A stretch of DNA of 64,000 bases from Patescibacteria group bacterium (GCA_052033715.1 JBPOJJ010000002.1:94408-158407); one strand, 5' to 3'. Positions 3,215 to 30,719 are shown, counted from the stretch's first letter. Translations and numbers: made by a program. The notes: generated by a model not told the origin, from the sequence alone.

Positions 3215-3901
3215 CTATTTATTGAGGCCTTCAATGACAGACTTGAGCTCATCGTAGGGCAAAGCTCCAGTAAAAGAAAACTTTTGACCATTTTTGTCAA
3301 CCAAGACAGTATGCGGTGTTCCATTGAATCCGAGTAAAATCTTATTTTGGGTGAATTCTTGGCGGATTTCTTTTTCGATTTCAGAATCTTTTATACAGAC
3401 CCCATATTTAGTCGCGTCAATTCCAAAAGTCTGGGCGACTTCTAAATAGTATTCTGTTTTTAGTTTATCTTGATTGGCGAATAATTCATCAGAATATTTC
3501 CAGAAAGCCTCTTCGCCACCGATACGCCCAACGCAAGAGCTCGCCACAGCTGCTTCGACATTAAAAATTGGTAAATGTCGATAAATCCATTTGATCTCGC
3601 CCTCAGACTCGTCCACGAGTTGCTTGAGTGTCAATTGGAACTGTGCGCAAAAATGACACGAAAAGTCTGCATACTCGATAAGAGTGACCGGTGCGCTTGC
3701 CTCCCCTCTCACAAAGTCCTCCTCGCGGACCTCAGCCACGAGATTGAGCTTATCCCCGCCCTCAGCGATAGCCTTCTCCGCCGGCTCTGCGCCTTTCAAG
3801 AAAACCGCGGAAGCTATAATTACAGCTCCCAGTACTATCGCTCCAGGAATGTTCAGTCTTGGCTTCGATACAGTTTCGATTTTTATTTCATTATTTTCCA
3901 T
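3215..3901 (-). CDS. DsbA-like thioredoxin-fold thiol:disulfide oxidoreductase, membrane-anchored
   Basis: CxxC active site in FSCHFCAQF. N-terminal TM. Thioredoxin-like length. Confidence 0.75.
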   Translation of the reverse strand: MENNEIKIETVSKPRLNIPGAIVLGAVIIASAVFLKGAEPAEKAIAEGGDKLNLVAEVREEDFVRGEASAPVTLIEYADFSCHFCAQFQLTLKQLVDESEGEIKWIYRHLPIFNVEAAVASSCVGRIGGEEAFWKYSDELFANQDKLKTEYYLEVAQTFGIDATKYGVCIKDSEIEKEIRQEFTQNKILLGFNGTPHTVLVDKNGQKFSFTGALPYDELKSVIEGLNK

Positions 3902-3902
3902 T

Positions 3903-4316
3903 TTATTTTTTCTTTAAACACTTAACACATTTGCAACCGACTGGTTTTATAAATTCATCAAAATATTCTTCTCCGTAATCATACGAGAGTTCCTCTCCCG
4001 CAGCAATGTTTTTGATGGCCATGATCATAATTCTGCCTTTCTTGATCTCAACTTCGCAGTTTGGCCGACAAGAATGGTTTATATACCTGGCGGTATTCCA
4101 TCTGGGCGAACCATCGATGGTAAATTTATTGTTAATTTCAAACAAGTATTTCCCCGTATGGTCTTCGACTTCTTTGTTCGGCTTTTTTATACCAATATAT
4201 TCGACAATAAAATCACCTTTCTTGAATAATTTATTCGTGACCAAACCAAACCCGAGCCCCTTGCCCGGTCGAATGATTCGAAAATCTTCGACTCTTTTAT
4301 TTTTCATTTTCGCCAT
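3903..4316 (-). CDS. SET-domain protein (putative lysine methyltransferase)
   Basis: NHSCRPNCEV and ELSYDYG motifs typical of SET domains. Ends in a Cys-rich post-SET-like tail (GCKCVKCLKKK). Confidence 0.8.
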   Translation of the reverse strand: MAKMKNKRVEDFRIIRPGKGLGFGLVTNKLFKKGDFIVEYIGIKKPNKEVEDHTGKYLFEINNKFTIDGSPRWNTARYINHSCRPNCEVEIKKGRIMIMAIKNIAAGEELSYDYGEEYFDEFIKPVGCKCVKCLKKK

Positions 4317-14522: not shown

Positions 14523-16145
14523 TTATTGCATCGAGTTTATATACGCCCTAGTTTTCTCTCCGAAAAACCCCGTTCCTTTTACGAGACCATAGGGCATCAA
14601 GATCTCGGTCTTGTAAGCTTCCTGGAATTTTACGAGCGCGGCAAAAGTGAGCGGTCCGAAGAATTCTGTTTCGGAGCCTGGCGCGCCAGAACCAGTTGCC
14701 GCAAGTTTAAATCCGGCACTGTTTAGAAACATCTGGAGTTTTTTGACTTCTAGACTTTTTTGTCCGAGGGCGAGATTCATTTCAAATTTACTAGACGAAT
14801 TTACCGTCGGGGCTTGAGTTGGGGCTGGGGCTTTGGGGGCGGTTTGTGATTCTGGTTTTTGAACTACTTGGTTAGTCTGATTGGTAATCGGGTAAGACCC
14901 AGAAGACTGCACCTGACTTGATTCACTTCCAAACAATCCAAATATTGAAAACGATGATGTCTCGCATGTAACAGTCATCGCGCCAGTATTGGTCGAACAA
15001 TTATTAAGTGCCTCCCATCCGATACCATCAGTATAGTGATAAATAGTGAGACTATTAGGATCAAGTCCTACAATGTCTTCTTCGGTATAATCGATAGTAA
15101 TCTCGACCGGCGCGTCAAATTCTTCGTCCAGCTCTGTTTTTTCATCTTCGAACGCTTTCAATGAATATGCTTGCCCAACCCAACTTTTCCCTGACGGAGT
15201 AGAAATCTCACTTTGAACTAAACTTTTCTGCAACTTCAAGGCCTCAACCCCAACCTCAGATAGACCACTCTTAAGATTGGCTGGCACAACAGCCTCAAGT
15301 CCCTTACCCCTAACCTTTGCTGAAATTGTTGTCCCAGCAAGGGCAGTTGATACCGAAGCTTGGTATGTAACGATTTCTGAATCGCCCTTGCATCCAGTAG
15401 TTTTAAAATCTCCGCCCTGACTTTCTGCCAAGTTTGAACTGTCGTCATAAGAAATAACCTTAAACCAGTATCCTGCACAAGAAGTTAAATCTTGGATCTC
15501 TATAGAGTGGTCTGTTGTTTTTGCTGCACCAGCGGTAACCTCTCCTTTAAAATCATCTGTTGGTCCATACTCAACAACCGATGTGCCCTTAACGGTTGTA
15601 GCCCAATCAATAATTGCTGTTGTGGCTGTTGTGGTTACTATAGGTTCCCCAAATAAAGCTATCGGATCATCCGGACCACCGCCACCGGTTGGAGTTGCCG
15701 TGACAGATAAAGACCTCTCACTTTCTGATAAATCAGACAAAGTGGTGATCTCAAAAGTGTACTCAGTATTATTTGTTAGACCAGTAACAGTATATGAAGT
15801 CTCAATACTACCAGTATCAACGGAGCTCTCTCCTTCTTTGCTTGCTGAATAATAGACTCGATAACCTGTTATGACTTCAAGTTGTAATCCTGGTTCCTGC
15901 CAAGCAAGAGACACTTCCCCGTCTCCAGCGGTTGCCGTTGGTTTCGATGGAGAATCTAAACCAAGCGCAATCTCTGGATATATAACAAACCCCCAGAGAG
16001 ACGCGAGTCCGGCGACAATTATCATAACCAAAACATGCTTATGAACTGTTTTTAATGAGTTAATTTTTTGCATATAAAGTAACAAAAATTTTATTAGACC
16101 ACTAATAAACAGATCATAGCACCTTTTCGATTGCGTCAAGGCCAC
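14523..16145 (-). CDS. Secreted protein with FN3 domains and C-terminal peptidoglycan-binding (PG_binding_1-like) domain
   Basis: N-terminal TM/signal, FN3-like segments, and a C-terminal LGQKSLEVKKLQMFLNSAGF...GPLTFAALVKFQEAY motif typical of putative peptidoglycan-binding domains. True start may be an internal Met (MQKINS... or MIIVAGL...). Confidence 0.7.
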   Translation of the reverse strand: MALTQSKRCYDLFISGLIKFLLLYMQKINSLKTVHKHVLVMIIVAGLASLWGFVIYPEIALGLDSPSKPTATAGDGEVSLAWQEPGLQLEVITGYRVYYSASKEGESSVDTGSIETSYTVTGLTNNTEYTFEITTLSDLSESERSLSVTATPTGGGGPDDPIALFGEPIVTTTATTAIIDWATTVKGTSVVEYGPTDDFKGEVTAGAAKTTDHSIEIQDLTSCAGYWFKVISYDDSSNLAESQGGDFKTTGCKGDSEIVTYQASVSTALAGTTISAKVRGKGLEAVVPANLKSGLSEVGVEALKLQKSLVQSEISTPSGKSWVGQAYSLKAFEDEKTELDEEFDAPVEITIDYTEEDIVGLDPNSLTIYHYTDGIGWEALNNCSTNTGAMTVTCETSSFSIFGLFGSESSQVQSSGSYPITNQTNQVVQKPESQTAPKAPAPTQAPTVNSSSKFEMNLALGQKSLEVKKLQMFLNSAGFKLAATGSGAPGSETEFFGPLTFAALVKFQEAYKTEILMPYGLVKGTGFFGEKTRAYINSMQ

Positions 16146-16218
16146 TTGTTCACAGTTTTAAATTCCCTCTCAGTGGAGCAAGACATAAAAAAAATTAATT
16201 TTTATATTTTGCGGAACC

Positions 16219-17988
16219 TTATATGACGCCGTCTTTTTGAGCCTGCCAGAGTTTGAAGTAATATCCGCCCTTGACCAAAAGCTCTTCGTGTCCACCATCT
16301 TCGACGATTTTACCTTTATCAAGCACTACGATACGATCCATTTTCTGCACGGTTGAAAGTCTGTGAGCAATGACTAGCGTCGTACGGTCCTTCATCACCT
16401 CATCAAAAGCTTTTTGGATCAAGTTTTCGCTGATTGAATCAAGACTTGATGTCGCTTCATCGAGAATGAGTATCGGCGCATCTTTGAGCATGACGCGAGC
16501 AATAGCTATGCGCTGGCGCTGTCCACCCGAGAGCTTCACCCCACGCTCGCCAACAAGAGTTTCATAACCTTCTTTGAATTCTTTGATAAATTCATCAGCA
16601 TGGGCTTTCTTCGAAGCTTCTAAAACTAAGAGTTTCGACGCATTCGGGTTTCCATACATAATATTTTCGCGCAAAGTCCTATGAAAGAGTGCCGGCTCTT
16701 GTGGAACATACGAAATATTTCGGCGTAAATCATCCTGGGTGATATTTCGAATATCCTGCCCGTCGATTTTAATCGCACCAGCTTGTACGTCCTCGAACCG
16801 CAAAAGTAGATTCGTAATCGTCGTCTTCCCCGAGCCAGAATGTCCTACAAATCCGACTTTCTGCCCAGCTGGAATCTCAAGGCGGAATTTCTTGAAGACA
16901 TCTTTGCCGTCTTTGTATTCGAATGTGACGTTGTCGAACAAAATATTTCCGTCTTTGATTTTAGACTTCTCTGGCTTCTCAGGATCTTTTATATCAATTG
17001 GTGTTTCAAAAATTTCTACCATTTCTTTGGTATCGGAAATTGAATCTTGTAACCCGATGATTGCGTTGCCCATATTCCAGATTGCCATATCAAGTTGAGT
17101 AATATACACCTGAACCAACACCACAAATCCAATATCGACAACGCCTTTTGACCACAGGGTTATTACGGCATACATCCCGCCAATCTCAAGAGAGAAAAGC
17201 ATGATTGACTGGATCACTTTGTGGAAGTTCGAAACATTTCCGGCTTTCCTGCGAAGCTTTTCTTCTTCGTCAGTTTTTGCAAAATAATTTTTTGCTTCAC
17301 CTTTTGTGAAGGAAAAAACTTTGGCAGTTAAAATATTTGTAACGATGTCTGATAAAAGGCCTGTCGTCCTAGAATTCGCCGCAGCTCGTCTTTCATTGTA
17401 TGGAATCTTGCGTCGAGCAAAAAAAATAGACAGGGTAGTGTACCCGAGAGACCAAAAAAGAAATATGAAACCCAGGAGACTATTCTTGCTAAACAATACA
17501 ATCAAAATTCCCGTAATTGAGACGATTGTTAACCAAAAACTAAAAAGTGTGATTTCGGCGAGCGCCGTAAGGGCTCCGGTAAATCTGGAATGTTTAGCCA
17601 CAATCGATCCTGAAAAATTATCAGCAAAGAATTTCCTGGAATGATTGATTGTAAGATTGAAAGCTCTGTCTGAGAGATCTTTTGTAATTTTTGTCTTGGT
17701 GTAAACAAAAGCATAATCAGATATTCGCCAAGCTAAAGAGTTGCCCAGGAGCGCTAGGATCAAAATCAAAAACCAGTGCCAAATTTCTGGAGTGAAACCA
17801 GGGACGGAAGCCGAGTAAATTGCATTGATGATGTTTTTATAAACTACTGGCTGAAAAACAGCGCCGAGAAAAATCGCTGTTGTACTAGCGAAAAATACTA
17901 CGAGGACCTGCCACTTTAATTTAAGTAGCGACGGCCAAAAGTATTTTAGGACCGTCGAAAATTTTACTTTGCTTTTGTGTTTTTCCAT
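16219..17988 (-). CDS. ABC transporter, fused permease/ATP-binding protein (MsbA-like exporter)
   Basis: Six-TM N-terminal domain, Walker A GHSGSGKTT, signature LSGGQRQRIAIARV, Walker B ILILDEATSSLD. Confidence 0.9.
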   Translation of the reverse strand: MEKHKSKVKFSTVLKYFWPSLLKLKWQVLVVFFASTTAIFLGAVFQPVVYKNIINAIYSASVPGFTPEIWHWFLILILALLGNSLAWRISDYAFVYTKTKITKDLSDRAFNLTINHSRKFFADNFSGSIVAKHSRFTGALTALAEITLFSFWLTIVSITGILIVLFSKNSLLGFIFLFWSLGYTTLSIFFARRKIPYNERRAAANSRTTGLLSDIVTNILTAKVFSFTKGEAKNYFAKTDEEEKLRRKAGNVSNFHKVIQSIMLFSLEIGGMYAVITLWSKGVVDIGFVVLVQVYITQLDMAIWNMGNAIIGLQDSISDTKEMVEIFETPIDIKDPEKPEKSKIKDGNILFDNVTFEYKDGKDVFKKFRLEIPAGQKVGFVGHSGSGKTTITNLLLRFEDVQAGAIKIDGQDIRNITQDDLRRNISYVPQEPALFHRTLRENIMYGNPNASKLLVLEASKKAHADEFIKEFKEGYETLVGERGVKLSGGQRQRIAIARVMLKDAPILILDEATSSLDSISENLIQKAFDEVMKDRTTLVIAHRLSTVQKMDRIVVLDKGKIVEDGGHEELLVKGGYYFKLWQAQKDGVI

Positions 17989-19797: not shown

Positions 19798-19995
19798 TTA
19801 TGCTCGTGTGATGTTCTTCGCACTAGGTCCTTTGTCACTTTCAACCAAGTCAAAGTTTAGTGTGTCTCCGACTTTCAAGTCTTCAAAAGCAACACCTTGC
19901 AAATCTTTGGCATGAAAGAATAGATCCTTTTCTTCGCCTTCGCGAGCGATGAATCCAAAACCTCTGTCCGTAAGAGTTTTAATTGTTCCAGTCAT
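19798..19995 (-). CDS. cspA: Cold-shock protein (CspA family)
   Basis: MTGTIKTLTDRGFGFIAREG...FFHAKDLQG carries the RNP1 and RNP2 motifs. ORF-track N-terminal extension to 20094 rejected because it reads through the upstream terminator hairpin and promoter. Confidence 0.85.
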   Translation of the reverse strand: MTGTIKTLTDRGFGFIAREGEEKDLFFHAKDLQGVAFEDLKVGDTLNFDLVESDKGPSAKNITRA

Positions 19996-20075
19996 TTGTT
20001 TTTTATATTTTTCTGCAGAAACCCCGACCTCAATTTCTAATGGGAGTATAATAGCACACCCACATAGAAAGTAAA

Positions 20076-20120
20076 CCCCCACACCAATTTTCATAGAATT
20101 TTAGAAAATTGGTGTGGGGG
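20076..20120 (-). terminator. Perfect 17-bp-stem hairpin immediately after the pif1-like stop codon (CCCCCACACCAATTTTC ... GAAAATTGGTGTGGGGG)
   Basis: Inverted repeat seen directly. It shares its arm sequence with the hairpin after polA (54085-54219). Confidence 0.55.
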
Positions 20121-24228: not shown

Positions 24229-24496
24229 GGAAATATTTTAACATATCCAATGGGGACTCTGTCACGCATAAATTTCCTGACGGAAATTTTGCTTAAGCCC
24301 GTTTTTTAATTTGTGGTCACAAATAAGGACTCGCTCACGAGTTACTAATTCGCTACGCTTATAAGTACTCGCGAGCCCGCCTCGCAGTCGCTGGGGCGAC
24401 ACGGCTGCGACTTTCTCGTCCTGACAGAGGCCAAGCAGTTGGCCTCTTTCCCGGGCACAAAATAAAAAGACTGGCCAAAGCCAGCTTTCTATTTTG

Positions 24497-24578
24497 TGCC
24501 CGGGACAGGACTCGAACCTGCATGCCTTTCGGCGCTACCACCTCAAGGTAGTAAGTCTACCAGTTTCTCCACCCGGGC
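24497..24578 (-). tRNA. tRNA-Leu(GAG): tRNA-Leu (anticodon GAG), long variable arm
   Basis: Reverse complement GCCCGGGTGGAGAAACTGGTAGACTTACTACCTTGAGGTGGTAGCGCCGAAAGGCATGCAGGTTCGAGTCCTGTCCCGGGCA. Anticodon loop TTGAGGT. Confidence 0.75.
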
Positions 24579-24803
24579 ATAAACGCTATTCTAATAGATT
24601 TTTTATAAATTCTCTACCCTCGCCAGATTTTAGCCACTTTTCTTTTTTTCTGGCTTCCAAACGTATGCAAAATATTCCATAGCTTTTGTCTACCAACCTG
24701 CCGGCAGGCAGGTTTCTCCCCCCGGGCTTATGGAAAGATATTATCAGTTTTTTGAAAAAGTGAAAGGTCGCACAGAGATGCGACCTTTCAAAAGAAAACG
24801 AAC

Positions 24804-25160
24804 TCAGCCGACGACGAGCCTCTTCAGGTCCAGAGCAGAATTTCCACACAAGTGTTCAGCTGCCCTGACGATCAGGTAGAAGGAAACCCTGAATTCGCCA
24901 CCCGGATTTGGGGTGCGCTCAAGGCAGAGGAAGCATGTCACTGTCTGATCGTCATCGACACCGAACCTTCGAAAGGTCTCTTCCCGCAACGTCGTCTTGC
25001 GCAGTAAAAGATGGTAGTCGACAGAACTGTTCTTCAGATCCCTGAGGAAGGACTTTCCTTCCGAACCCTCAAACAAGGGTACTCCTTGGCTTGGTGGCAT
25101 GGGTATCAATGCCCTCTCTGGCGTTTTGTTCATCGCGTGCATGGTTTGCTTGTTCGTCAT
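24804..25160 (-). CDS. Hypothetical protein, GC-rich (~52%)
   Basis: AAGGAG Shine-Dalgarno 9 nt upstream of ATG. Rho-independent terminator hairpin at 24757-24785 followed by a T-run on the minus strand. No family recognised. Confidence 0.5.
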   Translation of the reverse strand: MTNKQTMHAMNKTPERALIPMPPSQGVPLFEGSEGKSFLRDLKNSSVDYHLLLRKTTLREETFRRFGVDDDQTVTCFLCLERTPNPGGEFRVSFYLIVRAAEHLCGNSALDLKRLVVG

Positions 25161-25223
25161 CTTTTATACTCCTTTTGAAAAATAAATCAATAAAAATTTC
25201 GAGTTTTTGAGTATAATAGCCGT

Positions 25224-25994
25224 ATGAAAATCATTTCTTGGAACGTAAACGGCATACGCGCGAATTTCAAAAAAGGTGCGTTCGCCGAGATTTTTAAATT
25301 AAATCCGAATATTCTGTGCCTCCAAGAAACCAAGGCCGAACCATCACAGCTCACAGAAGAAATCTTGAAGCCCAAAGGTTACACGTCATATTTCTCAAGT
25401 TCGAAAATCAAAAAAGGCTACAGCGGTGTGGCAATTTATACGAAAGAAATTCCAGAAAAAGTTACGTATGGAATTGATATGCCCGGTGACGATGATGAGG
25501 GCCGTACCGTCACGGCGCATTACACCGACTTTATTCTCATAAACTGCTACTTCCCCAACGGCGGCGGCGCACCGGAACGTCTGGAATACAAACTAGAATT
25601 CTACGACGCATTTTTGAAATACGTAAATAAATTAAGGAAGGCCGGGAAGCGCATAATTTTTACTGGTGATGTGAATGTTGCGCACACTGAAATAGATATT
25701 GCGAGACCAAAAGAAAATGAAACGCATGTCGGATTCCTCCCCGAAGAACGTGCTTGGGTAGACGAAGTTATCGCTGATGGTTACGTCGACGTGTTTAGGA
25801 ATGTCAATCCGATGAAGAAAGATGTTTACACATACTGGGATCAGAAGAGCGCCGCACGTGAACGCAACGTCGGTTGGCGTATCGACTACTTCTTTGCTTC
25901 ATCTTCAATAATAAAAAATATTAAATCTTTCAAAACTCATGCCGACATCTTCGGCTCGGATCATTGTCCGATCTCCATCGAACTTAATATATAA
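25224..25994 (+). CDS. xth: Exodeoxyribonuclease III (AP endonuclease)
   Basis: MKIISWNVNGIRA..., LCLQETK and GDVNVAHTEID motifs. TATAAT 7 nt upstream of ATG suggests leaderless mRNA. Confidence 0.9.
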   Translation: MKIISWNVNGIRANFKKGAFAEIFKLNPNILCLQETKAEPSQLTEEILKPKGYTSYFSSSKIKKGYSGVAIYTKEIPEKVTYGIDMPGDDDEGRTVTAHYTDFILINCYFPNGGGAPERLEYKLEFYDAFLKYVNKLRKAGKRIIFTGDVNVAHTEIDIARPKENETHVGFLPEERAWVDEVIADGYVDVFRNVNPMKKDVYTYWDQKSAARERNVGWRIDYFFASSSIIKNIKSFKTHADIFGSDHCPISIELNI

Positions 25995-26044
25995 AGTGCA
26001 AACAGCCCTCGTTCACGAGGGCTGTTTGCCAAGAGTGGTCTTGG

Positions 26045-26851
26045 CTACTGCACATAATACCGCACACCTACGCGCCATCCGTCAGTGACCTTGTAGCCGA
26101 TACGAGCCAATTCGTCGCGCTCTGCTTCTTCGGGCATGACGACAAGTCCTTCGAGCACAACATGCGGAACCGGCTTAAAAGAAATACCGGCGCCGTACCC
26201 AGTGAACATCTCCTGAGTCAGCACGACCTCAAGACTTCGCAAGGGCAAGACTTTTTTGGCCGGAACAAGTAGGTGCCCGAGTCGGCCAGTGGCCCTGATG
26301 AACGAATGCATGTCGTTCAGTTCGAAAGTATTCGAGATCAGGAATGTCCAATGCTTCTGAGACGTCTGCATGTACGCGCCCCACAAAGGATACGTATCGA
26401 ACATTTTACTTCGACGAGTAATGAAATTCCCGTCCGAAGCAACATGGCGATAGTATTTGCCACTAGACACTCCGAAGCTCCATCGAAGTGGACGACATGT
26501 TACTCCGAGACTGATCCGCGACGAAATGTAGTGCGACGGATAGCCGTCTAGACCCACCAAAACGTAGGGCTCGAAAAGATGATCTCTCTTGGCGGGAAAG
26601 TAGAATTGAATTTCCATTTGTCCGCCATACAAACGAGATCTCGATTCCACGTCGCCCAACCGCTTGGTCTGGTTGTCGGTCATGGATTCGGTTCGCGGAA
26701 TCATGCAATCGAATCGAAGTAACACGATAACGTCGTTAGTCGTGTCCGCGCGGTTTGGGATAAAATCCGAAACCAGGTTCATCGCTAGTTGGGCCGAGGC
26801 AGTAAGCCAAGAGATTCCAACAGCAAAAATCAAGCAACACATCGTCTTCAT
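26045..26851 (-). CDS. Secreted hypothetical protein, GC-rich (~53%), C-terminal amphipathic beta-strand pattern (beta-barrel-like)
   Basis: Signal peptide MKTMCCLIFAVGISWLTASAQ. Alternating hydrophobic pattern ending ...GWRVGVRYYVQ. Composition strongly atypical versus flanks. Confidence 0.5.
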   Translation of the reverse strand: MKTMCCLIFAVGISWLTASAQLAMNLVSDFIPNRADTTNDVIVLLRFDCMIPRTESMTDNQTKRLGDVESRSRLYGGQMEIQFYFPAKRDHLFEPYVLVGLDGYPSHYISSRISLGVTCRPLRWSFGVSSGKYYRHVASDGNFITRRSKMFDTYPLWGAYMQTSQKHWTFLISNTFELNDMHSFIRATGRLGHLLVPAKKVLPLRSLEVVLTQEMFTGYGAGISFKPVPHVVLEGLVVMPEEAERDELARIGYKVTDGWRVGVRYYVQ

Positions 26852-26935
26852 GGCTTGGGGGTTTATGTGTGGTGGAAAGGACTGTTTCTGTCATTTACAT
26901 TTTACTATATAAAAATAAGCGCTTATAATTAGACC

Positions 26936-27373
26936 ATGCACGATCACGAGAAGAAAAAGTTAGACGAACAACATCCTCTAAACAAAAAGACGGGCAAAGA
27001 ACTCTACAACTTTGTAAAAAGTATGAAGAGTATTGGTCACGCTTGGCGCGGAATAATTGTATTCCTAAAAACGACAAACAATTTACGTTTCCATATTATG
27101 GTCGGCGTCATTGTTGTCTATTTTGGTTTTTATTTTCACATCACCACGACTGAGTGGCTTTTCCTGGTCCTCGCTATCACCATGGTCATCGCAGCCGAAT
27201 GTTTCAACACCGCTATCGAATTTGACATTGATCTGACCTCCCCCGAATATCACCCTTATGCCAAATACACCAAAGACGTCGCCGCCGGCGCTGTGCTTCT
27301 GACCTCTATCGGAGCTGTTGTTGTGGGACTCATCATTTTTATCCCCAAATTCATCCTTTTCTTCTGCTCTTGA
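26936..27373 (+). CDS. dgkA: Diacylglycerol/undecaprenol kinase (DgkA family)
   Basis: Three TM helices and AAECFNTAIE motif. 145 aa. Confidence 0.8.
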   Translation: MHDHEKKKLDEQHPLNKKTGKELYNFVKSMKSIGHAWRGIIVFLKTTNNLRFHIMVGVIVVYFGFYFHITTTEWLFLVLAITMVIAAECFNTAIEFDIDLTSPEYHPYAKYTKDVAAGAVLLTSIGAVVVGLIIFIPKFILFFCS

Positions 27374-27722
27374 CTTTTTTACCTGTGCATGTTATTGTTC
27401 AACTAAGCAGAACATCTCATGTGGATCATCAAGGAACTGATCGATGGGTTTGCCCGACTGACACCGTCAGACGGAATTACCCTTAGCGTAGCAACGGGCT
27501 TACTGGCCACCCTACTGACCTGGGGTATCAATAAGCTCGAGAGCCTGGCAAAGGCTCGTGCATGAAGATCGTTGAACTACGTGGACACAGCGTTTGAAGA
27601 GAAGGCACCGGCACACAGTCATGGTGGAATGGGTGGCGGCATGGACAAGACGCAAGTCGCGTCCAGCGCATCTCTTTGATCGAAGGGCCTCGCACGAGCG
27701 GGGTCCTTTGTCTTTTTAATAA

Positions 27723-29222
27723 TTATTTAACGTTATAATCTTTTCTGATTTTTTTGACTTCGAGGTCTTCTGCTTCGTCTTTAGCATTCTTCCCTGCTTC
27801 ACCAAGCTTGCGCAAATGTTCATCAGAAAGTTTTAGAAGTTCTGTGGCTTTATTTTCTAAATATTCTGCCGTATTTAATTTTGGATCTTCGAGAACTTCT
27901 TCGAGAAGTGCATGAAGTGTCCAACCAATATGTGGACCGGGTCTTCCCTGCCTGCCGGCAGGCAGGTCCGCCATTTCCATAATTCTATTTCCGTCAATTT
28001 TGAGCATGCCGACGTTTATCGGATCACGCATAACTTCTTCGATCATCGATTCAAATTTGCGAAGTCTGTATGGCTCTTCTTTGGGCCTGCCCATTCCGAC
28101 ACGATCACAAATTCGCAGGTCTATAAGATCCCAAACATTGTCTGCACCGACTTTGGCCACAAGTCTCCTGACCGCCGATAGAGTTATCTGATCCGTGTCA
28201 GAGAAGAACATGTGGTATCGCACAAGTCGAGTAATTTTGTCAGTCAATTCGTTGCCAAATTTCAATCGCTCGCAAATCTTCTTTGTGATTTTTGCTCCGA
28301 CAACATCGTGTCCGTAAAACGTATAATCTTCTTTTTCTTTGGACCATTCTCTGGTCGCAGGTTTCCCAATGTCATGAAAAAGCCCAGCCAGGCGAATGTG
28401 TACTGGCCATTCTTTGTCCGCGGCGTGTTGCATTGTACGGAGATTGTGTTCCCAAACATCGTAAATGTGTTCACCGTTTTGTTCGACGCCGATTCCAATC
28501 TCGAGCTCCGGTGAGATGTATTTCATGATTCCCAATTTCTGCGCCAAAGTAATTCCAATTATTGGTTCGGCCGACATTATCATTTTCAAAAACTCGTCGC
28601 GAATGCGTTCGGCTGAAATATTCGCCAGAAGTTCAACGTTTCTATTCATCGCCATCATCGTATCGTGCTCGATGACAAATCCGTGTTGGGTCGAGAAACG
28701 CACAGCACGAAGAATGCGTAAGGCGTCTTCTTGGAACCGCTCATCGGCGATACCCACAGCTTTGATCATTTTATCTTTGATGGCTTCGAGCCCGTCGTAG
28801 AGATCTACCAGTTCCCCATTCGACGGTCGGTAAGCGATGGCGTTCATGGTAAAGTCGCGACGTTTCAAATCGTCTTCTAGATTTTTGGAAAATTTTACCT
28901 CGTCTGGATGACGATTGTCTGAGTAAGTTGATTCGAGTCGATATGGCGTGACCTCAATAACTTTTAGATTTTCATTTTCGGTAATTTTGTTCTCGACACC
29001 GACGGTGCCAAATTTATTTTCATAAAAAGTGTCCGGGAAAATCTCCTGGATTTGCTCCGGCGTTGCATTGGTCGTCACATCCCAGTCTTTCGGCGTCTTC
29101 CCTGTCAACAAATCGCGAACACACCCGCCGACGATGTAGGCCTCAAAACCAGCCGACTCCAGACCATCAGTCACAATCTTAACTTCCGATGGAATATCGA
29201 AATCTTGTTTCATAAGTAACAT
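27723..29222 (-). CDS. cca: CCA-adding enzyme / tRNA nucleotidyltransferase with HD domain
   Basis: Pol-beta-like head (GGCVRDLLTGKTPKDWDVTT) plus HD motif (LAGLFHDIGKP). C-terminal region carries an in-frame GC-rich palindrome insertion (ADLPAGRQGRPG). Confidence 0.85.
   Translation of the reverse strand: MLLMKQDFDIPSEVKIVTDGLESAGFEAYIVGGCVRDLLTGKTPKDWDVTTNATPEQIQEIFPDTFYENKFGTVGVENKITENENLKVIEVTPYRLESTYSDNRHPDEVKFSKNLEDDLKRRDFTMNAIAYRPSNGELVDLYDGLEAIKDKMIKAVGIADERFQEDALRILRAVRFSTQHGFVIEHDTMMAMNRNVELLANISAERIRDEFLKMIMSAEPIIGITLAQKLGIMKYISPELEIGIGVEQNGEHIYDVWEHNLRTMQHAADKEWPVHIRLAGLFHDIGKPATREWSKEKEDYTFYGHDVVGAKITKKICERLKFGNELTDKITRLVRYHMFFSDTDQITLSAVRRLVAKVGADNVWDLIDLRICDRVGMGRPKEEPYRLRKFESMIEEVMRDPINVGMLKIDGNRIMEMADLPAGRQGRPGPHIGWTLHALLEEVLEDPKLNTAEYLENKATELLKLSDEHLRKLGEAGKNAKDEAEDLEVKKIRKDYNVK
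27947..27966. repeat. GC-rich perfect palindrome CCTGCCTGCCGGCAGGCAGG (in-frame inside cca). Related copies at 24697-24712 (16 nt) and 30264-30285 (22 nt)
   Basis: Three occurrences seen directly. Sharply GC-rich in an AT-rich background. Confidence 0.85.
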
Positions 29223-29258
29223 TCTAGCAAGAAACTCTTAATTTAGACTCTAAATTTG

Positions 29259-29330
29259 TGCACCCAGAGGGATTCGAACCCCCAATAACGGTTCCGAAGA
29301 CCGTCGTGATATCCATTTCACCATGGGTGC
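29259..29330 (-). tRNA. tRNA-Arg(TCG): tRNA-Arg (anticodon TCG)
   Basis: Reverse complement GCACCCATGGTGAAATGGATATCACGACGGTCTTCGGAACCGTTATTGGGGGTTCGAATCCCTCTGGGTGCA. Anticodon loop CTTCGGA. Confidence 0.75.
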
Positions 29331-29490
29331 ATCACCTGTGCGAGTAAGGGTCGGTCACAACTCTTTTGCTCCGCAAAAGGTCGCGACCCCGCCTCGCCCG
29401 TCGCTATTGCGACATGGCTCTGGCTTTCGATTCCCCACGCGAGACACGCAGGTGTCTCGCTTTCACGCACAAAAAGCTTTTAGCTTTTTG

Positions 29491-29561
29491 TGCGAGTAAG
29501 GGGAATCGAACCCCTGCCGTCTGATTGGCAACCAGACGTTCTACCATTAAACTATACTCGC
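29491..29561 (-). tRNA. tRNA-Gly(GCC): tRNA-Gly (anticodon GCC)
   Basis: Reverse complement GCGAGTATAGTTTAATGGTAGAACGTCTGGTTGCCAATCAGACGGCAGGGGTTCGATTCCCCTTACTCGCA. Anticodon loop TTGCCAA. Confidence 0.8.
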
Positions 29562-29641
29562 AATAAACAACACAATATCAATTTTCTCCAACAAATACAA
29601 GAAAGCCCGACTCGCGGGCATCCCTGCTAGTCGGGCTCAAC

Positions 29642-30013
29642 CTATTTCCACCGGTATCCAGTTATGCGGTAAAGTCGGTATTTTAGCCTACTTGTTGATT
29701 CTAGTTTGGTCGAACCCAGAAGTTCATCAAAAACCTCGGGCTTGACCAGACAATCAACTAAACAAACTGTCTCCCCTGCGCACGTCCAGGTGCGAGAAAT
29801 CACTTCGGCAACACCTTGTCCAAGGTCACACGCGGAGATCTGGAAATAGTCCCCTTTGCTTATAACCTCGGGCCAGTTCTCTATTTCGACCTCCACATTC
29901 TCAGGCCGGTCAACTGTGCGAAAGTTTAGGATTGCTTTCATGTTCTGTGTTTTGCTAAACATTAACATCCGGCGTTTTATATAGCAACTATTGTCCCTTA
30001 TCCCCCTACCCAC
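29642..30013 (-). CDS. Hypothetical protein (likely starting at an internal Met, ~100 aa), moderately GC-rich
   Basis: 123 aa ORF. No family recognised. Lies between the tRNA cluster and a repeat-rich intergenic region. Confidence 0.35.
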   Translation of the reverse strand: MGRGIRDNSCYIKRRMLMFSKTQNMKAILNFRTVDRPENVEVEIENWPEVISKGDYFQISACDLGQGVAEVISRTWTCAGETVCLVDCLVKPEVFDELLGSTKLESTSRLKYRLYRITGYRWK

Positions 30014-30308
30014 ATGTTTATCCCCTTTTGTCTTTTAAAATCTAAATACACAAGGTGTTGTAAAATAATGCTTTTTTGACACTGGTCTGTGGATAACCCT
30101 GTTTATAACGTTGATAACTAGTAGTTTTTTACCCTAAAAATGTCCTTTATGAATTAAAAACGTTGACTTATAAGGGTTTTTACCATTTCACATGTAACGT
30201 TTCATGTGAAACGTATTTAAGGCACGTTTATAAGGGTTTTTAAACATCAAGTTGTTACGCATGTCCTGCCTGCCGGCAGGCAGGAACATTTACTTAGTTT
30301 CTGGTATT

Positions 30309-30719
30309 ATGTTATTCATGAAACAATTCACTTCCAAAACCCAGAAGTTGGGTGAAATTGGTGAGAAATTGGCCGTAATGTTTCTCATGAAACATGGATT
30401 TCAGGTTTTGGAGACCAATTACACGAAGAAATGTGGGGAAATAGACATTGTGGCCCAAAAGGGTAAAAATTTACACTTTATTGAGGTTAAAAGCGTTTCC
30501 CGTGTAACGTTAGACGATGTTTCATCAGAAACGTCTGGCTATAGGCCAGAAGAGAATATGCATCCGAAGAAAGTCGAGAGATTCGTCCGAACGGCTGATT
30601 ATTACCTTATGGAGAAGAATGTACCTGATACGATCGAATACCAGATCGATCTAGCTCTCGTCTACATAAACCCGATAAAACGCGCAGGGAAGGTAGTCCT
30701 TATGGAGCAGGTGGTTTAA
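30309..30719 (+). CDS. yraN: YraN/UPF0102-family endonuclease-like protein
   Basis: KLGEIGEKLAVMFLMKHGFQVLETNYTKKCGEIDIVAQKGKNLHFIEVKS matches the UPF0102 core. ORF-track start at 30252 reads through the GC palindrome and is rejected. ATG at 30309 or 30318. Confidence 0.75.
   Translation: MLFMKQFTSKTQKLGEIGEKLAVMFLMKHGFQVLETNYTKKCGEIDIVAQKGKNLHFIEVKSVSRVTLDDVSSETSGYRPEENMHPKKVERFVRTADYYLMEKNVPDTIEYQIDLALVYINPIKRAGKVVLMEQVV

Follow-up and report, generated by a model that had tools for sequence, protein, structure and literature searches.

Dispersed, non-autonomous, GC-rich palindromes of 20–40 nt characterize the REP/REPIN–RAYT systems, in which repetitive extragenic palindromes (REPs) flank a putative enzyme gene, targeting is based on hairpins, and no classical target-site duplication is left behind. 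Here we describe a palindrome sharing these properties from a 64,000-nt stretch of DNA of a Patescibacteria group bacterium (GCA_052033715.1 JBPOJJ010000002.1:94408-158407), referred to below as the window, with positions counted from its first letter. This palindrome, which we name P, is a perfect 20-nt sequence, CCTGCCTGCCGGCAGGCAGG, composed of two abutted 10-nt arms, CCTGCCTGCC and GGCAGGCAGG. The window displays the local footprint of a palindrome/GIY-YIG/tRNA system that extends across phyla, namely one decayed cassette and two solo hairpins. That P is an inserted sequence, that its insertions are exact, and that it is a regular part of GIY-YIG/tRNA cassettes in many phyla can be stated with high confidence. 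The explanation we favor, and consider rather probable, is that P is a mobile DNA palindrome serving as the hairpin partner of cassettes at tRNA genes that encode tiny GIY-YIG proteins (UPF0213/Slx1-type, about 80 aa).

P differs from REPs in several ways. RAYT is an IS200/IS605-like Y1 HUH transposase, whereas the partner of P is an 80-aa GIY-YIG protein resembling UPF0213 and Slx1; no HUH/Y1 protein was found among the 25 largest cross-locus protein clusters listed, and PF01541 (GIY-YIG) was the only family common to the P loci. REPs are imperfect palindromes with a conserved GTAG, whereas P is perfect, lacks a 5′ GTAG head and stands in unrelated flanks. REPs are species-specific and occur in hundreds, while P is identical across phyla and its copy number per genome appears low, with three copies in the 64 kb of the window. 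In addition, P enters coding genes in frame as well as the loops of tRNA genes, and its enzyme gene is embedded in a tRNA-gene duplication. Miniature inverted-repeat transposable elements (MITEs; Correia/NEMIS, RUP and BOX) are likewise small, non-autonomous and dispersed, with inverted-repeat ends, and are sometimes co-transcribed or located in genes, but they derive from insertion sequences (ISs), measure 50–400 bp and have target-site duplications of fixed length, whereas P consists of two abutted arms and usually causes no duplication. An all-vs-all comparison of the open reading frames (ORFs) in P loci yielded no transposase family common to them, and no related IS was found. A preliminary description of the window had likened the palindrome to REP- or MITE-like mobile elements; its mobility and manner of working are indeed alike, as judged from empty sites in relatives, but P belongs to neither family, having no associated RAYT or HUH protein, no GTAG, no related IS and, at the window site comparable with relatives and at 22 tRNA-fragment sites, no target-site duplication.

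Rickettsia palindromic elements (RPEs) resemble P in that in-frame insertion is tolerated and in that the host genome is small and reduced. They are about 100–150 bp long and confined to Rickettsia, and to our knowledge they have no enzyme partner; P measures 20 bp, occurs in many phyla and is tied to a nuclease cassette. The GC clusters of yeast and fungal mitochondria are similar in other respects, being short GC-rich palindromes that invade an AT-richer genome, lie beside tRNA genes and in frame within coding sequences, nest within each other and spread through gene conversion. They belong to eukaryotic organelles, measure about 30–40 bp, fall into several classes and usually come with a short target duplication, and they are not known to have a dedicated GIY-YIG partner. 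Phage T4 SegB is a free-standing GIY-YIG homing endonuclease whose gene lies in a tRNA gene cluster (PMC2330249). With SegB-type elements, the P cassettes share a GIY-YIG gene among or against tRNA genes, a patchy distribution in relatives and an expected spread by break repair with co-conversion of the flanks. Seg and Tev enzymes are larger, roughly 200–250 aa, with separate DNA-binding domains, and we are aware of neither a dispersed palindrome nor a tRNA-fragment duplication associated with them; the cassette protein, in contrast, is a bare catalytic domain, and the cassette adds both of these features. Among proteins of solved structure, the best sequence matches are UPF0213/YhbQ and SLX1. 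The latter, which works with SLX4 in eukaryotic repair, cuts branched and hairpin-like DNA, as fits a hairpin or cruciform substrate; UPF0213 has no assigned function, and neither is known in a mobile element or linked to a specific palindrome. GIY-YIG genes have been listed among the predicted transfers from Patescibacteria to other bacteria (PMC12455944). A literature search, with subscription journals outside its scope, returned no relevant text on the 20-mer, its 12-mer core or the encoded peptides, so that we call P and its pairing with the nuclease cassette undescribed in a provisional sense; for the 10-nt half-sites and for GIY-YIG genes combined with tRNAs or palindromes, the titles and abstracts retrieved were unrelated.

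The window contains three exact matches to CCTGCCGGCAGG (24697, 27951 and 30269), compared with an expectation of 0.06 from shuffled sequences, none of 100 shuffles having three or more matches. For the perfect palindrome, present as copies 2 and 3 (see the table), shuffles expect 0. The three copies lie where the preliminary description had placed them, but the word dispersed does not suit them, for they are confined to 5.6 kb and the other 58 kb of the window is free of the motif. Its limits for the third copy, 30264-30285, encompass 22 nt and are accurate if a flanking T/A pair is counted in addition to the palindrome itself; the ATG of yraN is at 30318. The distance from the decayed cassette is 3.2 kb for solo copy 2 and 5.6 kb for solo copy 3. 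P is predicted to fold into a hairpin with an 8-bp stem and a 4-nt loop, at −8 kcal/mol as DNA and −13.9 kcal/mol as RNA. Taken by itself, the 16-mer of copy 1 is predicted to form a 6-bp stem with a 4-nt loop; together with its flanks, as AACCTGCCGGCAGGCAGGTT, it has an 8-bp stem and a 4-nt loop. At the gathering score, Rfam detected seven tRNAs in the window and no family at the P sites.

Copy 2 interrupts cca, the gene for the CCA-adding tRNA nucleotidyltransferase, which we compared with its 120 best homologs from Paceibacteria/Parcubacteria (60–92% identity). The LPAGRQG loop is missing in 117 of these, which read ...EMGE-(K/R)PGP... where the window reads ...EMAD-LPAGRQG-RPGP..., placing the insertion directly before the PGP motif. 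An in-frame insertion at this position had been proposed earlier, with the comparison of CCA enzymes as its check; the loop is not shared by all orthologs, and the insertion amounts to seven residues rather than the six proposed. At the DNA level, the difference consists of P plus one base, 21 nt in total, and the reading frame is kept. A homolog from a different sample (P0014 in L005; L numbers are our handles for comparison stretches), 84% identical, carries the identical 20-mer at the same codon while nearby synonymous sites differ, and another (P0029 in L006) has a degenerate insertion, 12 nt longer, that reads PPSPKAPAGRG. Within the latter gene (L006, 10040-10080), a second small palindrome, GCCTTCGCCAAAGGC, lies near the tip of the old P; similar nesting is seen in L166, L175 and L135. 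The cca site is empty in L001, L004, L242 and L243. Near P, the cca gene of the window is closer to the P-bearing L005 and L006 than to L001, its nearer relative overall: from −102 to +60 nt around P, an interval picked post hoc, 18 of 27 informative sites are L005-like, compared with 87 of 271 elsewhere. This suggests that the cca insertion may have come or spread through recombination together with some flanking sequence.

In the yraN leader, where the window reads TGTT[P]ACATG, L001 and L006 have TGTTACATG and L242 has TGTTACACG, so that copy 3 is an exact 20-nt insertion, without target-site duplication, that is missing in three syntenic relatives. No copy of P was found anywhere in the syntenic stretches L001 (a 274-kb contig of about 80% nucleotide identity), L242 and L243. 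In L001, all three P positions of the window lack P, and those covered are empty in L242, L243 and L006.

These empty sites bear on the suggestion, part of which had been raised in the preliminary description, that the motif is a restriction, recombination or protein-binding site of the host or a terminator, or else an artefact of sequencing or assembly such as an adapter or a chimera junction. Its core, GCCGGC, is the recognition sequence of a known type II restriction enzyme, copy 3 was picked by a lenient terminator scan, and junction adapters are often palindromic. However, close relatives lack P at the same sites, it lies inside a coding sequence, Rfam assigns no family to it, and it is common to unrelated phyla that are not expected to share a host regulator. 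The restriction- or binding-site interpretation was rejected on account of the syntenic relatives without the site, and that of an intrinsic terminator because copy 3 alone passes a lenient scan (tail ACATTTACTT), a T-tract is missing from copies 1 and 2, the second of these is part of a coding sequence, and relatives do without the hairpin. As for an artefact, two independent assemblies of different samples both show P in frame and translated within cca, its length being compensated by an extra base, and P recurs in isolates, in a single-cell genome and in assemblies with differing contig-name conventions, apparently short- and long-read as inferred from the names, which argues against a product of library preparation. 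We therefore reject this group of explanations and assign it a negligible probability. CRISPR repeats, integron attC sites and dif were dropped as candidates as well, there being no array and no R/L box structure, and the copies being insertions.

An exact-match scan of one genome per species, comprising 596 Gb, detected the 20-mer in at least 120 genome stretches from at least eight phyla, where about 0.5 would be expected for a 20-nt palindrome. Among the matches listed, the carriers are many Patescibacteria classes, Bacteroidota, Omnitrophota (including a single-cell genome) and Planctomycetota, and furthermore Gamma- and Deltaproteobacteria, Bdellovibrionota, Nitrospirota, Thermodesulfovibrionales, Verrucomicrobia, Elusimicrobia and Chloroflexi. 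Cultured Bacteroidota are represented by Winogradskyella echinorum, Flagellimonas yonaguniensis, Longitalea luteola, Aquiflexum lacus, Agriterribacter humi and Aestuariivivens sediminis, some of the isolate copies residing on Mb-scale contigs. Nearly each of the matches listed is a single copy from a different genome. A comparison of flanks, another of the checks put forward at the outset, gave an identical 20-mer over many phyla in unrelated surroundings, so the 20-mer itself is the repeated unit.

P prefers loops and hairpin tips, and it tolerates, or is filtered to, in-frame positions. Most copies are intergenic. Many sit at the tip of an older hairpin (e.g. L085, L046, L119), and inverted repeats of at least 8 nt flank 16% of P sites compared with 8% of control positions. 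Other copies lie between the units of tandem repeats (L107, L088), inside another P (L048, L024) or inside tRNA-like sequence (12 of 125 sites). In-frame copies, nearly always read as LPAGRQ, were found in FtsK (L019), RfbB (L027) and GatB (L110), and also in ribosomal protein S6/RpsF (L053), ScpB (L059) and DapF (L063). Immediate direct repeats of 5–14 nt are present at 8 of 191 P sites (4%) versus 0.8% of control junctions; they measure 7 nt in L051, L086, L088, L107 and L225, 5 nt in L126, 8 nt in L209 and 14 nt in L215. Flanking direct and inverted repeats are thus enriched, yet are found at a minority of sites. The target consensus is limited to a weak bias at position −1 (A 43%, T 10%), and an A on either side of P is no commoner than chance.

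P was also present in 35 stretches from viral contigs, most of them GC-rich. One contig of 29.5 kb (L227, L234, L235; GC about 0.6) contains at least six perfect copies and no GIY-YIG gene, several of the copies lying within a longer repeat, GGGTGCCCCATCCTCGCGGTTTTTG[P]CGAGGGTGGGTC, in both orientations. On two other viral contigs (L208 at 8616 and L231 at 2284), P takes the place of the variable loop in a tRNA-Met that is otherwise full length, ...GGCTCATAACCACGAGG[P]TCGCCGGTTCGAATCC.... Despite P, the one in L231 is still called as tRNA-Met by ARAGORN; the hairpin might imitate a long variable arm, so that the tRNA could stay usable.

The link to a nuclease emerged from the comparison of all ORFs in the P loci, which involved no prior choice of protein. 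The top cross-locus family is a protein of 80–95 aa ending in ...EARKREKYLKSGxGKEFLK, whose intact members match Pfam PF01541 with E values of 1e-14 to 1e-17. Its closest solved structures are the UPF0213 proteins BH0048 (1ZG2) and EF2693 (1YWL), with E values of about 1e-13, followed by the structure-specific endonuclease SLX1 at about 1e-6; the match to TIGR01453 (group I intron endonuclease) is far under the cut-off, with 19 versus 56 bits. P lies directly 5′ of the GIY-YIG ORF in L043 (a curated complete WWE3 genome), L112 (labelled Gammaproteobacteria), L124 (Chitinophagales) and L066 (Thermodesulfobacteriota, fused into hsdS). The regular layout is a 5′ tRNA part split by P, the ORF, and the same tRNA in intact form. 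Thus, L043 reads GGGGACGTAGCTCAGTGGTAGA[P]GCAGCGGC, followed by the ORF and an intact tRNA-Lys that starts with the same 30 nt. In a mirror layout (L130, L163, L133), an intact tRNA and the ORF precede a 3′ tRNA fragment with P in the T-loop or variable loop. L066 has no tRNA site; there, at 3780-4200, P and the GIY-YIG domain are in frame between the two target-recognition halves of a type I hsdS, and the cassette thus lies in a defence gene.

We approached the same association from the protein side using 80 metagenome loci picked by similarity to the GIY-YIG protein alone, a sample that leans toward P-bearing clades. In about 30 of these, P (with up to three mismatches; 20 exact) precedes the ORF by 30–72 nt, and in about 10 it follows at a distance of 20–100 nt. 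The ORF adjoins a co-oriented tRNA gene in about 60 loci, most commonly tRNA-Leu or tRNA-Arg but also Lys, Met, Gly, Thr, Phe, Ile, Val, Ser, Asn, His and Ala, and nearly all of these loci carry a duplicate piece of the same tRNA on the far side of the ORF. All 22 tRNA-fragment cases have P between two adjacent tRNA nucleotides, at offset 0, the usual position being after an A in the D-loop, at tRNA position 14/15 or 20–23. Among about 14 P-less cassettes inspected by eye, most have another GC-rich palindrome at the same place, such as CCCGCCCG...CGGGCGGG, TCCCGAC..GTCGGGA, TCCGCCGCGGCGGA, or a P whose tip contains a second, nested palindrome. In a tree built from the 80 proteins, P tracks the ...KSG[IVC]GKE[FY]LK clades, and the ...KSGMGKRYLK clade has neither a palindrome nor a tRNA neighbor; the co-phylogeny of palindrome type and nuclease clade is limited to this coarse signal. 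Single tRNA fragments may hold two palindromes, nested or double (L135, L171, L133, L166), tandem units of tRNA 5′ fragment, P and ORF occur (L154, 1380-1833; L134, 1380-1780), and in L091 the ORF is followed by a tRNA that has itself been hit, so that insertion looks repeated and active. Possible origins of the tandems are repeated invasion of a tRNA once restored, a circular or concatemeric form, and an effect of assembly where contigs are short. In L147 and L136 the upstream tRNA copy is still full length, which would be compatible with duplication of the whole tRNA gene followed by insertion of P and decay. Positions 5 and 12 of P covary in two variant types, which could point to a shifted 6-bp hairpin register; the independent variants are too few to establish it, and it is not clearly favored by folding.

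The position of P in the 5′ leader of the ORF, together with its very stable RNA hairpin, would also suit a purely cis-acting element, in which an RNA hairpin stabilizes, insulates or regulates the nuclease mRNA transcribed from the tRNA promoter and solo copies are leftovers of ORF deletion. P flanks the ORF on both sides in L154, L134 and L169, so recombination between two P copies could leave a single one, and the cassette of the window is itself decaying. Nevertheless, each solo copy is a precise insertion of 20 bp, or of 21 bp when in frame, unaccompanied by further cassette or tRNA sequence, and such copies lie in essential genes (cca, ftsK, gatB, rpsF), where a cassette intermediate of about 300 bp would have been lethal. 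P is also nested in P and in the tips of unrelated hairpins, and host tRNA sequence separates P from the ORF, so the two do not form one contiguous block. We regard a cis element without mobility as unlikely.

Alignment of the window with complete tRNA-Leu(GAG) cassettes (L161, L146, L132, L124) places copy 1 in this context. The spare tRNA-Leu fragment, which corresponds to the intact 5′ end GCCCGGGTGGAGAAACTGGTAGAC and recurs in these four cassettes, lies just downstream of an extended −10-like sequence, TGATAATAT, as well as of the terminator. The window cassette matches the four over their full length except for an ORF deletion of about 150 nt and the loss of 4 nt in P; they have a perfect P at the same insertion point, and the same D-loop site of tRNA-Leu(GAG) is filled in the window and in each of them. 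We conclude that copy 1 represents a cassette in decay at a site that is targeted recurrently. It had been described as intergenic and next to tRNA-Leu, which is correct as to place, although it is part of a decayed GIY-YIG cassette on a duplicated tRNA-Leu fragment. A hidden Markov model of intact cassette proteins matches the ORF 24589-24855(−) with an E value of 2e-5, and EARKKEKWLKSGEGREFIKNLLE is the C-terminal signature of the family; a possible start, MEYFAYV (ATG at 24680), was read by eye in a frame other than that of the C-terminus. To judge from its sequence, the tRNA-Leu(GAG) is left functional by the cassette.

Table. Palindrome copies and associated features in the window
Feature	Position	Strand	Remarks
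Copy 1	24697..24712	no strand	16-nt P derivative CCTGCCGGCAGGCAGG, minus one TGCC; in D-loop of spare tRNA-Leu fragment
Copy 2	27946..27966	−	perfect P 27947-27966 plus extra base 27946; 21-nt in-frame insertion in cca, encodes LPAGRQG
Copy 3	30265..30284	no strand	perfect P, 33 nt upstream of yraN (UPF0102) start; junction TGTT^ACATG
Terminator	24790-24761	read on −	upstream of spare tRNA-Leu fragment; from terminator scan
Spare 5′ tRNA-Leu fragment	24713..24727	−	GCCCGGGGGGAGAAA, tRNA positions 1-15; upstream of palindrome, just downstream of terminator
Spare tRNA-Leu continuation	24688..24696	−	TTGGTAGAC, rest of D-loop and D-stem after palindrome
Decayed GIY-YIG gene	24587..24687	−	about 150-nt internal deletion and frameshift; C-terminus EARKKEKWLKSGEGREFIKNLLE; stop 24589-24587
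tRNA-Leu(GAG), intact	24496..24578	−	ARAGORN; Rfam RF00005, 45.8 bits; adjoins cassette
cca (CCA-adding tRNA nucleotidyltransferase)	27723..29222	−	499 aa, full length; host gene of copy 2; homologs with PF01743, PF12627, PF01966

At the counterpart of copy 1, L001 has a non-aligning region with no copy of the motif and a 226-aa ORF (15616-16296) with a faint LAGLIDADG match upstream of tRNA-Leu, so that the tRNA-Leu neighborhood may host a different homing-endonuclease gene in that relative. A GIY-YIG ORF that belongs to the cassette family lies elsewhere in L001, at 19803-20090, without a P in its vicinity.

To account for the coupling of P to the cassettes, we propose that the GIY-YIG protein acts as a structure-specific nuclease that would cut DNA hairpins, cruciforms and the cloverleaf-like folds of heavily transcribed tRNA genes. 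Recognition of DNA structure is proposed because the protein is a bare catalytic domain of the Slx1/UPF0213 branch. The nuclease would nick at such structures, and the breaks would receive P, itself ideally suited to form a hairpin or cruciform, by copying or pasting in trans. Solo copies would then be its non-autonomous offspring, by analogy with REPs for RAYTs and MITEs for a transposase, and an inserted P might spread between related genomes by homologous recombination with some flanking sequence. By splitting the spare tRNA copy, P would shorten direct repeats that could otherwise delete the cassette or the ORF, and the placement of the cassette would allow it to ride on the tRNA promoter while the tRNA stays intact. 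That the nuclease mobilizes P is proposed only tentatively. Bolder, and a little more doubtful, is the full statement that P is a 20-bp hairpin transposon, the first of its kind, moved in trans by bare-domain Slx1-like GIY-YIG nucleases that sense DNA secondary structure rather than sequence; at the same level of caution, the structures sensed would be tRNA-gene cloverleafs, hairpin tips and cruciforms, and the system would be a GIY-YIG counterpart of REP/RAYT, unchanged across at least eight phyla.

Several points weigh against this explanation, and some of them equally favor a plausible though clearly less probable alternative: P is mobile, but is moved by host repair or replication at hairpins, or by another enzyme, the spare tRNA fragments being neutral, loop-rich landing sites. 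About 94% of the P copies in genomes have no nuclease gene within the 8-kb block; GC-rich viral contigs carry P without a GIY-YIG gene; and P is also inserted in the tips of ordinary hairpins and in tandem repeats that have no relation to tRNAs. The CCCGCCCG and TCCCGAC palindrome types are scattered over the protein tree, so the type may depend on the host genome and not on the nuclease. The 64-kb window is devoid of an intact GIY-YIG gene, so its two perfect solo copies have no visible driver there. Furthermore, the 80 loci were ranked by likeness to one P-associated protein, which favors P-bearing clades; an 80-aa catalytic domain has no obvious DNA-binding module for reading 20 bp; the direct repeats at 4% of sites, often 7 nt, and their absence at the others do not fit a single simple cut geometry; and the co-conversion signal in cca is weak with a fixed ±120-column window (p = 0.044), its tract having been picked after the data were seen. 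The proposed mechanism accounts neither for the origin of the tRNA duplication nor for the invariance of the 20-mer across phyla. Against movement by something other than the nuclease, about half of the protein-side loci in the relevant clades have P at a constant site and spacing relative to the ORF, the ORF or a remnant of it adjoins at least 7 of the about 11 P sites in genomic tRNA fragments, and the P-less cassettes inspected by eye mostly keep some palindrome in the tRNA fragment, which suggests that the palindrome is a required part and not an accident.

The combination of palindrome, GIY-YIG gene and tRNA appears to be a new variety among selfish elements that pair a nuclease with a palindrome. 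If our explanation is correct, the few systems of this type would gain both a new enzyme class, GIY-YIG, and a new architecture, and a role would be suggested for the widespread, uncharacterized UPF0213/YhbQ-type proteins. P accounts for the recurrent LPAGRQ, PACRQA and CLPAGR loops in otherwise conserved proteins, and the cassettes may account for some partial tRNA genes and odd calls of tRNAs with inserts in Patescibacteria and Bacteroidota. A 20-bp sequence that stays identical from one phylum to another offers a rare, direct marker of DNA exchange between phyla. A structure-recognizing nuclease with a 20-bp tag that can be inserted without target duplication could also have practical interest. 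Since carriers include cultured Bacteroidota such as Agriterribacter humi and Winogradskyella echinorum, the mechanism is open to experiment.

The surroundings of copy 3 contain further repeats. Upstream of yraN, a palindrome, GTTTCATGTGAAAC (30199-30212), is invariant in L001, L006 and L242, and the copies of a direct repeat, CGTT(G/T)A(C)TTATAAGGGTTTTTA, are located at about 30161-30183 and 30225-30243. The segment 30160-30243 looks like an operator or promoter region, with P inserted just downstream. The cumulative GC skew of the window has its minimum at 28–30 kb, and dnaA-rnpA-yidD-yidC, placed by synteny with L001, is located at about 34.3–37.8 kb; all three copies of P and six tRNA genes therefore lie near the probable replication origin.

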